Shown here piece after piece: positions 46,356 through 47,391 of a DNA stretch of 64,000 nt (positions are counted from its first letter, which is position 1; the number at the start of each line of letters is the position of its first letter). The DNA is from Escherichia phage vB_Eco_AL25: the sequence record OW991345; one strand, given 5' to 3'. Made by a program: the position numbers and the translations under genes. The notes under the pieces are model-generated. The model made no database searches, had not been told where the DNA came from, and worked only from the letters and a program-made list of their open reading frames with translations.

Positions 46356-46562
46356 ATGTTTAAGTTCTTAGACCTTATCTGGGCAGTCATTTTGCTGGTT
46401 GCTACAGGCTTTGTATATGGCTTTTTGCTCCCATCAATGATGTCTGCTTTAGACAGCATCATTGTTGTTATGGGCTTGATAGTCTGTATTGTGTGGCCTC
46501 TTATCATAGGCCGTATCGTTTATCTTACAGTTAAGAAAAGGATGAGAAGAAAACATGTATAA
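46356..46562 (+). CDS. small two-TM membrane protein, 68 aa
   Basis: RBS GGAG; two hydrophobic helices; the longer ORF-track start includes the terminator. Confidence 0.5.
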   Translation: MFKFLDLIWAVILLVATGFVYGFLLPSMMSALDSIIVVMGLIVCIVWPLIIGRIVYLTVKKRMRRKHV

Positions 46563-47391
46563 GTACATTGCAGTAGCAATTGCAGGGCTAATCATTGCTC
46601 TAAGTTTAACGAGCTGCTATGACCGAGTTGAACCAGGTAATGTAGGTATTATCGTTAATCGTCTCGGTGAAGATAAAGGTGTGGAAAATGAGGTTAAAGG
46701 TGTAGGCCGTTACTGGCTCACTTGGAATGAAGAACTTTATACATTCCCGACCTTTAAGCAGATGAAGACCTATGATGGTCTGTTTTACTTCCAACTGTCT
46801 GATGGTACTCAGATAGGCCACCAGATGGCTATCAGCTATAAAGTGAACCCTACTAAGGTAACTAATATCTTCCAGACGTATCGTAAGGGAGTTAATGAAA
46901 TTACCGAGCAGGATTTACGACAACGTATTGCTGATGTACTTAACAGACAGGGTAACCTGATTAACACTGATACCTTTATTGATGGTGGTAAATCTAAGCT
47001 ACTGGATAGTGTCACTGACACAATCCGTAAAGAGATGGAACCAGTGGGGATTGATATTATTGCTATCTCCTGGATTGGTGCTCCTGAATACCCCGATAAC
47101 GTTAAACGTGCCATTAATGCCAAAGTAGAAGCTACTCAGAAAACTCTGCAACGTGAGCAAGAGATTCAGCAACGTGTAGCTGAAGCTAATATGGAACGTG
47201 AACAAGCTAAGGGTGTAGCAGATGCTATCCTGATTAAAGCTAAAGCAGAGGCTGATGCTATTCGTTTACGTGGTGAAGCACTCACCGAGAACCCAAATGT
47301 AATGCAACTGGGAGCCATTAATAAGTGGAATGGTACATTACCTACCACAATGATTCCTGGGGCTACTACACCTTTCGTTAATGTGAAATAA
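46555..47391 (+). CDS. SPFH/band-7 (stomatin/prohibitin-like) domain lipoprotein, 278 aa
   Basis: Lipoprotein signal AIAGLIIALSLTSC; PGNVGIIVNRLG... SPFH-like core; C-terminal coiled-coil (QREQEIQQRVAEANMEREQAKG). Confidence 0.55.
   Translation: MYKYIAVAIAGLIIALSLTSCYDRVEPGNVGIIVNRLGEDKGVENEVKGVGRYWLTWNEELYTFPTFKQMKTYDGLFYFQLSDGTQIGHQMAISYKVNPTKVTNIFQTYRKGVNEITEQDLRQRIADVLNRQGNLINTDTFIDGGKSKLLDSVTDTIRKEMEPVGIDIIAISWIGAPEYPDNVKRAINAKVEATQKTLQREQEIQQRVAEANMEREQAKGVADAILIKAKAEADAIRLRGEALTENPNVMQLGAINKWNGTLPTTMIPGATTPFVNVK

Follow-up and report, generated by a model that had tools for sequence, protein, structure and literature searches.

What a lytic phage would do with a membrane-scaffold gene of the SPFH superfamily, carried together with the gene of a small membrane protein, is the question raised by positions 46,356 to 47,391 of Escherichia phage vB_Eco_AL25 (OW991345). 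The window that we analyzed is a stretch of 64,000 nucleotides of this phage; all coordinates refer to the window, and each feature described below lies on its plus strand.

Identity and layout of the locus

A 1.8-kb region of vB_Eco_AL25 was 98.3% identical to phage N4 and 100% identical to vB_Eco_SPSP. Judged by this identity, the phage is an Enquatrovirus and a relative of N4, and the ORFs at 46,356-46,562 and 46,555-47,391 are genes 19 and 20 of N4, with gp19 and gp20 as their products. The earlier note had described ORFs of 68 and 278 aa in the middle region of a lytic phage; both are present, and the pair is located in the middle-gene (replication-phase) territory of a lytic N4-type phage. 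Both genes are real: the DNA of the pair is kept at 98-100% identity across 15 N4-type genomes, and conservation of the proteins reaches far wider. Recent horizontal acquisition of the pair was rejected, since its GC content (0.39-0.43) is the same as that of the flanking DNA. The gp20 gene is already annotated; what goes beyond the annotation is the gp19 loop family and its linkage, together with partner swaps and fusions. Authors of phage genome reports call the function of such genes unclear (PMC13239085, PMC7760394, PMC8540360), and our search of the literature on N4 and SPFH proteins, gp19/gp20 and N4 essential-gene screens found nothing useful.

The gp19 gene (46,356-46,562; 68 aa) starts at an ATG with a Shine-Dalgarno sequence, GGAG, at 46,347-46,350. 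The mechanical ORF list opens this frame at TTG 46,320, a codon within the stem of the upstream terminator; the N4 record has the 68-aa form. The gp19 stop and the start of gp20 (46,555-47,391; 278 aa) overlap by 8 nt (ATGTATAA, 46,555-46,562), in agreement with the suggestion that the small membrane partner is translationally coupled to gp20, and on this arrangement we consider the two genes to be coupled. Intrinsic-terminator-like hairpins are located on both sides of the pair, as had been claimed. The upstream element (46,322-46,344; hairpin 46,322-46,338, GCCCTCC-TAT-GGAGGGC) has seven pairs, six of them GC, a loop of 3 and the tail TTTTTT, and closes the gp18 unit 11 nt 5' of the gp19 start. 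The downstream element (47,398-47,427; hairpin 47,398-47,420, AAACCCACC-ATTAC-GGTGGGTTT) has nine pairs, five of them GC, and a tail, ATTTTTT, with a run of six T; it ends the two-gene unit. But comparable hairpins also occur 3' of gp16 (44,978) and gp17 (45,919), so the bracketing by terminators is a local rule and is not special to gp19/gp20. The 3.5-kb region holds nine terminator-like sites, compared to 1.9 +/- 1.5 in shuffles.

Predicted fold and location of gp20 and gp19

The SPFH-like core proposed for the larger protein was recovered by profile search. Residues 24-210 of gp20 (46,624-47,184) matched the Pfam family Band_7 (PF01145) with 83.9 bits (cut-off 23.6, E 1.8e-23), and the whole protein matched PHROG 200 with an E of 6.5e-94. 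The lack of an SPFH profile match, which the earlier note had named as refuting its reading, is thus not what was seen; the match is strong. The AlphaFold2 model (pLDDT 76) has a beta/alpha core, which coincides with the Band_7 domain, and a single long helix of 65 residues at aa 181-245 (47,095-47,289), rich in Ala, Glu, Gln and Arg, where a C-terminal coiled coil had been expected. This modelled helix is the counterpart of the wall helix in SPFH cages. Foldseek returned full-length matches of the model to prohibitin (E 1.5e-13), HflK/C, erlin, stomatin, flotillin and QmcA-YbbJ with a probability of 1.00, and the PDB fold matches listed were all SPFH scaffolds or vault proteins. The helix is followed by a conserved tail (aa 246-278; 47,290-47,388) with the invariant columns N246-P247 ... 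K257-W258-x-G260 ... P263; in phmmer and profile alignments this tail and the end of the preceding helix resemble the C-terminal motif of prohibitin-2. Confidence of the model is low (pLDDT < 50) over the C-terminal 30 residues. In sequence, gp20 is only remotely similar to SPFH proteins of solved structure, with a best profile E of 5e-5. Taken from profile and model, gp20 is a member of the SPFH/Band 7 superfamily with the predicted full architecture of its cage-forming families. The sole NCBIfam match, to the HflC equivalog TIGR01932, scored 19.6 bits against a cut-off of 134.4, and gp20 was rejected as an HflC equivalog.

The lipoprotein signal with the lipobox LTSC, which the earlier note had read from the letters, is well conserved. 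The gp20 N-terminus, MYKYIAVAIAGLIIALSLTS-C21, consists of M-Y-K and a hydrophobic stretch that leads into L18-T-S-C21 (signal peptide and lipobox 46,555-46,617; Cys21 codon 46,615-46,617), thus ending in the pattern [LVI][ASTVI][GAS]C by which we defined a lipobox. L18 and C21 are invariant across 25 gp20 homologues (alignment A1), and lipoboxes are also present in the Stx, GAP31, Erwinia, crAss and phiCbK homologues. These features identify gp20 as a putative secreted SPFH protein of the lipoprotein type. The residue at +2 of gp20 is Tyr and that at +3 is Asp; Tyr is said to have been described as a retention signal by Seydel et al. in 1999. Of 120 gp20 homologues examined, C-D-R, which puts Asp at +2, is found in 51 and C-Y-[EDQ] in 56, while about 10 have no Cys and keep a hydrophobic N-terminus. 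Asp at +2 is a Lol-avoidance signal (PMC11671585). We infer that gp20 stays bound to the inner membrane, on its periplasmic side, because of the Asp at +2 in close relatives, the signal-anchored variants that have no Cys and the natural fusions to gp19 described below. Since the +2 residue of the N4 type is Tyr and not Asp, N4 gp20 might still be sorted to the outer membrane.

Hydropathy analysis of gp19 gave two TM segments (aa 7-25 and 34-52), consistent with the 68-aa membrane partner that had been proposed and with an inner-membrane protein. The tail, KKRMRRKHV, is basic, with a net charge of about +6. A loop motif, Y21-G22-x3-P26-x3-S30-x2-D33 ... G40, is conserved (alignment A3); the prediction places this loop in the periplasm and the basic tail in the cytoplasm. 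The protein matched PHROG 1130 (E 3.3e-20). Its relatives are elusive to fast searches: a word-indexed protein search returned only two proteins and an exhaustive HMMER profile search 13 representative clusters. We defined the gp19-like partner family by a length of 60-85 aa, two TM helices, the loop YG-x3-P-x3-S-x2-D, a basic C-terminal tail and a position abutting an SPFH gene, and gp19 shows every one of these features. The possibility that gp19 is an NfeD protein was rejected; its 68 residues are taken up by the two TM helices, the loop and the basic tail, without an NfeD/OB-fold domain, and no Pfam NfeD match was found at E <= 0.1. The best that could be obtained with a holin profile was a sub-threshold match to Phage_holin_3_6 of Pfam (14.4 bits, cut-off 28.4, E 0.04), and membership of that family was likewise rejected; experiments have identified gp63 as the pinholin of N4 (PMC12642591).

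Distribution of the cassette and its likeness to known systems

We located 80 metagenomic viral loci of IMG/VR with the gp20 alignment and scanned their neighbours with the gp19-family HMM. A gp19-family ORF was directly 5' of the SPFH gene in 79 of the 80, and the remaining locus is cut by the contig end. All of the 80 loci are at least 61% identical to gp20, so this count reflects inherited linkage and not independent associations. The same arrangement was also recovered in Enc34-like prophages, CMS-2020a, an Stx2 phage, jumbo phage 7t3, Rhizobium IG49, Ruegeria RpAliso, Pseudomonas Ostro and Burkholderia E264, while in phage GAP31 the gp19-family ORF is two genes upstream of the SPFH gene and does not abut it. 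Non-homologous small TM proteins fill the same slot in phage K, a Sextaecvirus, Kuttervirus, phiCbK and OLIVR1. Altogether, a small TM gene is directly upstream of the SPFH gene in 15 of 19 lineages, compared to a background of about 14%, and natural in-frame gp19-SPFH fusions are present on at least 15 contigs. Between distant lineages, the partners vary in topology and in how many TM segments they have, making a single common mechanism an assumption.

Relatives of gp20 are present in about 700 sequenced phage genomes. The cassette is carried by podo-, myo- and siphoviruses of alpha-, beta- and gammaproteobacteria, Bacteroidota and staphylococci. Its neighbours are replication genes whether the phage is virulent or temperate, and in the temperate ones it is part of the early lytic operon. 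In two prophage contexts, neither a strong sigma-70 promoter-like match nor a terminator hairpin adjoins the pair, and on this ground we rejected a prophage 'moron' expressed in lysogens. The P22 gene 17-like gp18 adjoins the pair in only 3 of 96 loci, the Kuttervirus copy being two genes from the SPFH pair, and gp18 was rejected as a third component. The earlier note had not recognized how widely this conserved cassette, of which we recovered roughly 100 copies, is spread. Homologues in Kayvirus, Kuttervirus, Bruynoghevirus and crAss-like phages carry the labels 'lipoprotein', 'serine protease' or 'hypothetical'.

The closest parallel in organization is found in SPFH-NfeD operons (E. coli QmcA-YbbJ, PDB 8z5g; B. 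subtilis YuaF-FloT), which likewise encode an SPFH scaffold and a small polytopic membrane protein, with tight linkage or coupling of the two genes; QmcA matches the gp20 fold over the full QmcA length. The expected logic is also the same, a partner inside or under an SPFH cage, which for gp19/gp20 is deduced from the genes and the model. In contrast to the NfeD partner, gp19 has only 68 aa and no NfeD/OB-fold domain. Whereas a TM hairpin anchors the SPFH-NfeD scaffold, gp20 would be held by the lipid of its predicted lipobox and face the periplasm, and the phage pair is virus-encoded and expressed in lytic growth. The HflK/HflC-FtsH complex (PDB 7vhq, 7wi3, 9cz2) is a periplasm-facing inner-membrane SPFH cage, a likeness that is predicted for gp20. 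HflK and HflC are similar to gp20 in length and in the order of their domains (Foldseek E 1e-12 to 1e-10) and have a historic phage link through the control of lambda lysogeny. However, gp20 is encoded by a single SPFH gene and not as a heteromeric pair, has a lipoprotein lipid anchor and its own small partner, and its TIGR01932 score indicates that it is not an orthologue. The prohibitins PHB1/PHB2 (PDB 8rrh, 9o9z) gave the best structural match and, among solved structures, the only clear match at the sequence level, which includes the C-terminal helix and an 'NP...L..I' motif. Identity is only 16-18%, and prohibitins, unlike gp20, are mitochondrial, TM-anchored and heteromeric, without a small co-encoded client. 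T4 Imm/Sp and T5 Llp, too, are small membrane proteins or lipoproteins, expressed early by virulent coliphages and active at the envelope, but they are lineage- or receptor-specific, whereas the gp19/gp20 cassette spans many phage families.

Possible functions of the pair

The reading that we favour, and regard as fairly probable, is by analogy with SPFH-NfeD systems: gp19/gp20 would be a phage SPFH cage with a mini client, a two-component envelope module. The two proteins would be expressed together with the middle (replication-phase) genes, and gp20 may oligomerize into a ring or cage around a membrane patch that holds gp19, as QmcA does around the NfeD protein YbbJ and HflK/C around FtsH. 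Several other explanations compete with this reading; the two roles that the earlier note had proposed, superinfection exclusion and lysis timing, are candidates only. The name 'serine protease', which many database records carry, among them OLB145, 7t3, Stx2_95 and UniRef entries, is almost certainly wrong for gp20. The SPFH domain, the helix and the tail account for the whole mature protein, no protease domain was found in Pfam, NCBIfam or PHROGs, and the fold matches listed do not go beyond SPFH scaffolds and vault proteins. We presume that the name spread from the ClpP-class NfeD proteases that neighbour cellular SPFH genes. A role in lysis timing, with gp19 as a holin- or antiholin-like two-TM protein whose oligomerization is restrained by the gp20 scaffold, thereby delaying lysis, draws on the size and topology of gp19, which are those of a class II holin or pinholin, on its weak holin-profile match, and on the position of the cassette 3' of the endolysin gene in phage K and near a spanin-like and LysM-type gene in Kuttervirus. 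Yet that match stays below the cut-off, and in most lineages the cassette is expressed with early or middle genes and not with late ones. Moreover, the N4 gp60-63 cassette by itself brings about lysis and, at high density, lysis inhibition, with gp63 as the pinholin (PMC12642591), and more than 60 spontaneous rapid-lysis mutants of N4 mapped to gp61, gp63, gp50 and the terminal repeat. None was in gp19 or gp20, although both would offer large targets for loss of function. The only gp20 difference between N4 stocks, H110/R110, is common to the wild type and the r strain and is not linked to the r phenotype. We consider a lysis-timing role very unlikely.

Modulation of a host membrane protease is also improbable in our estimation, if less so. 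The phage cage would mimic or replace HflK/C, capture FtsH (or HtpX) and change how fast membrane proteins and regulators of the phage or the host are turned over. There is precedent in the HflK/C cages around FtsH and the prohibitins around m-AAA proteases, both among the top fold matches; the sole NCBIfam match of gp20 is to HflC, and FtsH is universal, in keeping with the many hosts in which the cassette occurs. N4 researchers have labelled gp20 a 'predicted protease modulator', and the analogy to HflK/C has been made by others. But the HflC score speaks against orthology, the conserved phage-encoded partner is left unexplained, and the logic of lambda CII is inapplicable to N4, which is strictly virulent. 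A dedicated superinfection exclusion system, which we rate as unlikely, would have gp19/gp20 block the translocation of a secondary N4 genome or vRNAP at the inner membrane, like T4 Imm/Sp, and would also supply the superinfection signal that triggers lysis inhibition in N4. The usual exclusion agents are small membrane proteins and lipoproteins (T4 Imm/Sp, T5 Llp, P22 SieA), and the predicted envelope location and the early or middle expression of gp19/gp20 are in line with them. A gene annotated as 'superinfection exclusion', the P22 gene 17-like gp18, is also close by, just upstream in N4 and Moo19 and at a distance of two genes on the upstream side in Kuttervirus. Lysis inhibition in N4 is reported to depend on superinfection, and the exclusion system of N4 is still to be identified (PMC12642591). 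On the other side, the cassette is common to phages with unrelated receptors and injection machines, including those of Gram-positive hosts, which counts against a receptor-specific exclusion role, and known exclusion proteins are lineage-specific. The temperate-phage copies lie within the early lytic operon, with neither a strong promoter-like match nor a terminator hairpin beside them, unlike a prophage-expressed moron, and gp18 rarely adjoins the pair. Profile searches of Pfam, PHROGs, PADLOC and NCBIfam returned no exclusion-protein family for gp19 or gp20, and no defence family of PADLOC-DB matched gp18, gp19 or gp20 at E <= 0.01.

We do not think that the cassette is a receptor-specific blocker or the lysis clock itself. 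As the most speculative part of the SPFH cage and client reading, the cassette may provide a dispensable accessory function that insulates or stabilizes part of the inner membrane of the infected cell before programmed lysis. It could guard membrane integrity and proton-motive force, and hence lysis timing, when secondary phage adsorption or similar insults strike the cell, or it could block superinfecting genomes from entry. In its most extended form, which we put forward only tentatively and regard as unlikely, the pair would be a portable two-gene 'membrane corral', in which a periplasmic lipid-anchored SPFH nanocage around a two-helix phage protein fences off patches of inner membrane. For N4, such a corral would supply the missing superinfection-exclusion and sensing device that feeds lysis inhibition, and more generally it would be a viral shield against secondary injections or membrane-attacking abortive-infection effectors.

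Atomic-resolution views of SPFH cages (HflK/C, prohibitin, flotillin, stomatin, erlin, QmcA-NfeD) are only recent, and the effect of the cages on the enclosed membrane is debated. A virus-encoded minimal SPFH cage, with one lipid-anchored subunit and a 68-aa client in the well-studied N4, would be a compact and genetically tractable model. If deletion gave no phenotype, gp19/gp20 would be just another accessory gene pair. The findings bear on many genes of therapeutic phages (Kayvirus, Kuttervirus, Bruynoghevirus, crAss-like) that are annotated as 'lipoprotein', 'serine protease' or 'hypothetical', and they highlight gp19/gp20 as a concrete candidate for two functions at the N4 envelope, superinfection exclusion and the lysis-inhibition signal.

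The gp19-gp20 unit and its surroundings

Over the 1.8 kb around the pair, identity was 100% with Escherichia phage vB_Eco_SPSP and 98.3% with phage N4, whose record annotates gp19 as 'membrane protein' and gp20 as 'lipoprotein'; the finding is therefore a gene pair of a model phage, already annotated, within the middle-gene block. In N4, the genes for gp16 (RNAP2), gp17 (an Ig-like decoration protein) and gp18 precede gp19-gp20, and those for gp21, gp22 (an HNH endonuclease) and gp24 (an AAA ATPase) come after. The GC content of the pair was the same as that of its flanks. The earlier note had described a small two-TM protein translationally coupled to a lipoprotein, and we found both ORFs as claimed, at 46356-46562 (gp19, 68 aa) and 46555-47391 (gp20, 278 aa), overlapping by 8 nt (ATGTATAA). 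Hydropathy analysis of gp19 gave two TM helices and a strongly basic C-terminal tail. The ATG at 46356 has GGAG five bases 5' and is the start annotated in N4; the ORF listing begins this ORF at TTG 46320, a codon within the stem of the upstream terminator.

The pair is bracketed, as had also been claimed, by hairpins with T-runs (46322-46344 and 47398-47427), and the region held nine terminator-like sites versus 1.9 +/- 1.5 in shuffles. This bracketing is not specific to gp19-gp20, and neighbouring gene units are each bracketed likewise. Hairpin/T-run sites follow successive units at 44978-45014, 45919-45947, 46322-46348 and 47398-47430, four within 2.5 kb, with only about 10-30 nt from each to the next start codon. 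Three of the four continue directly into 'TTTTA', and no good sigma-70 promoter was found between them (44978-47430). They may be terminators that leak, or may each combine a terminator with a promoter signal for N4 RNAPII.

Among the neighbours, gp18 (45967-46281, + strand; 2501-2821 in locus L096) gave a strong Pfam match (E 2.4e-56) to GP17, the 'superinfection exclusion' family of P22 gene 17. It lies directly 5' of the cassette (the gp19-family and SPFH genes together) in N4 and Moo19, and two genes 5' of the 2TM-SPFH pair in Kuttervirus STML-13-1; a homologue adjoined the cassette in 3/96 loci and was absent there from the others. An HNH homing-type endonuclease gene occurs just 3' of the cassette in the window (gp22, 47680-48036, +), Moo19, phage K and GAP31 (loci outside the window: L002 3287-3922, L010 4077-4427, L008 4106-4543), which might be coincidence or might be tied to the cassette's spread between phages. 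On the same strand, gp21 (47454-47678, 74 aa) matched a zinc-finger-like profile (zf-UBP) weakly and below threshold (E 1e-3), and gp23 (48037-48207, 56 aa, PHROG 23946) is hydrophobic with apparently two TM helices.

Fold and family of gp20

The proposed SPFH core was borne out by the Pfam Band_7 profile (83.9 bits, cut-off 23.6), and gp20 belongs to PHROG 200 'lipoprotein' (E 6.5e-94). In an AlphaFold2 model built with 25 homologues (pLDDT 76), a signal helix came before the beta/alpha core of the SPFH domain (aa 22-178), which was followed by a single unbroken helix (aa 181-245), where a C-terminal coiled coil had been claimed, and by a low-confidence tail. Run against the PDB, Foldseek aligned the model over its full length, at a probability of 1.00, with subunits from all solved SPFH cages: prohibitin (E 1.5e-13), HflK/C (alone or with FtsH), erlin, stomatin, flotillin and QmcA-YbbJ, then vault. 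Sequence kinship to solved proteins was remote, the best profile match (E 5e-5) being to the prohibitin-2 C-terminal helix with an 'NP...L..I' motif. We conclude that gp20 is a genuine SPFH protein and represents a separate subfamily. An HflC/HflK orthologue was rejected, the HflC equivalog model scoring far under its cut-off, as was a protease, despite many database names.

Codon 110 of gp20 in the window (46882-46884) encodes Arg, which is invariant in the 25 homologues. This residue is His in RefSeq N4 and Arg in current laboratory N4 stocks (PMC12642591 Table S1), and the RefSeq His110 is probably a stock variant or sequencing error. In Agrobacterium phage OLIVR1, the ORF matching the SPFH profile (E 4.8e-25; L104 2276-3133, +) lies on the strand opposite to the 'band 7-like protein' CDS (2465-3496, -), a record that may contain a strand error.

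Linkage to small membrane partners

With gp19 as query, tblastn matched solely N4-like enterobacterial phages, and an exhaustive profile search yielded 13 representative clusters of 60-86 aa proteins sharing two TM helices, a basic tail and the loop motif Y-G-x3-P-x3-S-x2-D ... G (alignment A3). An HMM from this alignment was run on 80 IMG/VR loci carrying gp20 relatives of at least 61% identity. A gp19-family ORF lay directly 5' of the SPFH gene in 79 of them, usually overlapping its start, and the sole exception ends at a contig edge; linkage in closely related loci is inherited and does not represent independent events. Abutting pairs were also present in Enc34-like enterobacterial prophages, the phage-plasmid-like CMS-2020a, jumbo phage 7t3, Rhizobium phage IG49, Ruegeria phage RpAliso and Pseudomonas phage Ostro. 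Three further records lack an annotation for the small two-TM ORF directly 5' of the SPFH gene: the Stx2a-converting phage Stx2_95 (L007 2256-2444), crAss-like phage cr128_1 (L004 2254-2457) and Burkholderia phage vB_E264 (L102, about 2124-2453); in the last two it was recognised by motif only. In the Vequintavirinae phage GAP31 the gp19-family ORF is two genes 5' of the SPFH gene.

In more distant lineages another kind of small membrane protein fills the slot directly 5' of the SPFH gene: phage K has one of 102 aa with a single TM helix, a Sextaecvirus one of 91 aa, Kuttervirus one of 69 aa (two TM helices, basic loop), phiCbK one of 116 aa (three TM helices) and the N4-like OLIVR1 one of 38 aa. 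All 19 lineages inspected had a small TM gene on the same strand within three genes 5' (directly adjacent in 15), against a background in these loci of ~14% small TM proteins, the partners themselves counted. A gp19-like two-TM protein and the SPFH protein are also joined in natural in-frame fusions of 347-363 aa on at least 15 contigs, several of them independent (homologue P0075, L097 4001-5044; cluster members P0137, P0138 and P0140-P0142). Recurrence with non-homologous partners, together with these fusions, makes it very likely that the gp19-like partner and the SPFH protein form a functional pair.

Membrane side, expression and possible role

The lipoprotein signal attributed to gp20 was recovered: a short, positively charged N-terminus leads into a hydrophobic stretch and then the lipobox L-T-S-C21, with L18 and C21 invariant in the 25 homologues of alignment A1. 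Among the 120 homologues listed, 56 N4-type proteins read C-Y-[E/D/Q]-R and 51 read C-D-R-V-E-P-G, with Asp at +2, a Lol-avoidance signal by which lipoproteins of E. coli are retained at the inner membrane (PMC11671585). In about 10 the Cys is gone (G-Y-D-R) and the hydrophobic N-terminus is kept; such close homologues (P0082-P0091, P0101, P0106, P0111), many on contigs of about 110 kb, read ...G-Y-D-R-V-E-P-G and are probably signal-anchored rather than lipoproteins. In the fusions the former signal peptide comes after the basic tail of the gp19 portion, a layout that is topologically workable only with the gp19 C-terminus in the cytoplasm and the SPFH portion in the periplasm, at the inner membrane; the lipobox of the fusions is now internal, past a third hydrophobic helix, and may no longer be processed. 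Because of the Asp +2 relatives, the Cys-less variants and the fusions, we argue that the family acts at the periplasmic face of the inner membrane. N4 gp20 itself, with Tyr at +2, could also be sorted to the outer membrane. Tyr at this position can reportedly retain lipoproteins, an observation ascribed to Seydel et al. 1999.

The pair forms its own terminator-bracketed unit among the N4 middle genes. In other virulent phages the cassette has replication and nucleotide-metabolism genes as neighbours; it comes after the endolysin gene in phage K and near spanin-like and LysM-type genes in Kuttervirus. In temperate phages it is part of the early lytic operon, flanked by the genes for an Enc34-type SSB and for DNA polymerase A; neither a strong sigma-70 promoter-like match nor a terminator hairpin adjoins it, which argues against a lysogen-expressed conversion gene. 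One Enc34-like prophage (L014) carries a CAP12/PCTIR TIR-domain gene (9019-9780) just past this polymerase gene, which looks like a defence-type insertion in the operon.

Our literature search found no experiment on any cassette member, and genome papers call its role unclear. The earlier note had suggested superinfection exclusion or lysis timing. Lysis of N4 is assigned to gp60-63, and none of >60 rapid-lysis mutants carried gp19 or gp20 changes; the only gp20 difference, H110 (RefSeq) versus R110 (lab stocks), is common to wild type and the r strain (PMC12642591, Table S1). A lysis-timing device thus appears improbable. The N4 superinfection-exclusion system is described as uncharacterised (PMC12642591), and we consider it unlikely that the cassette is a dedicated system of this kind; protease modulation seems rather more doubtful. 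Over these main rivals we favour a structural mechanism, modelled on QmcA-YbbJ and HflK/C-FtsH. In this mechanism gp20 would build a periplasmic cage on the inner membrane, the cage would enclose gp19, and the pair would serve to protect or insulate the envelope in a generic way during the pre-lysis period. The module and cage reading is reasonably probable; any specific physiological output is much less so.

The cassette is widespread and easy to test in N4. The SPFH annotation is not new, several records calling gp20 an SPFH-domain protein, prohibitin-family protein or lipoprotein. Relative to the literature searched, three features appear to be new: a conserved family of mini partners with tight coupling to the SPFH gene, a lipid anchor that bears a signature of sorting to the inner membrane, and the natural gp19-SPFH fusions. 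In contrast to the SPFH-NfeD theme, the phage partner has no NfeD domain, and the mini partner, lipid anchor and fusions together mark out a version of the SPFH-plus-partner theme that belongs to phages.
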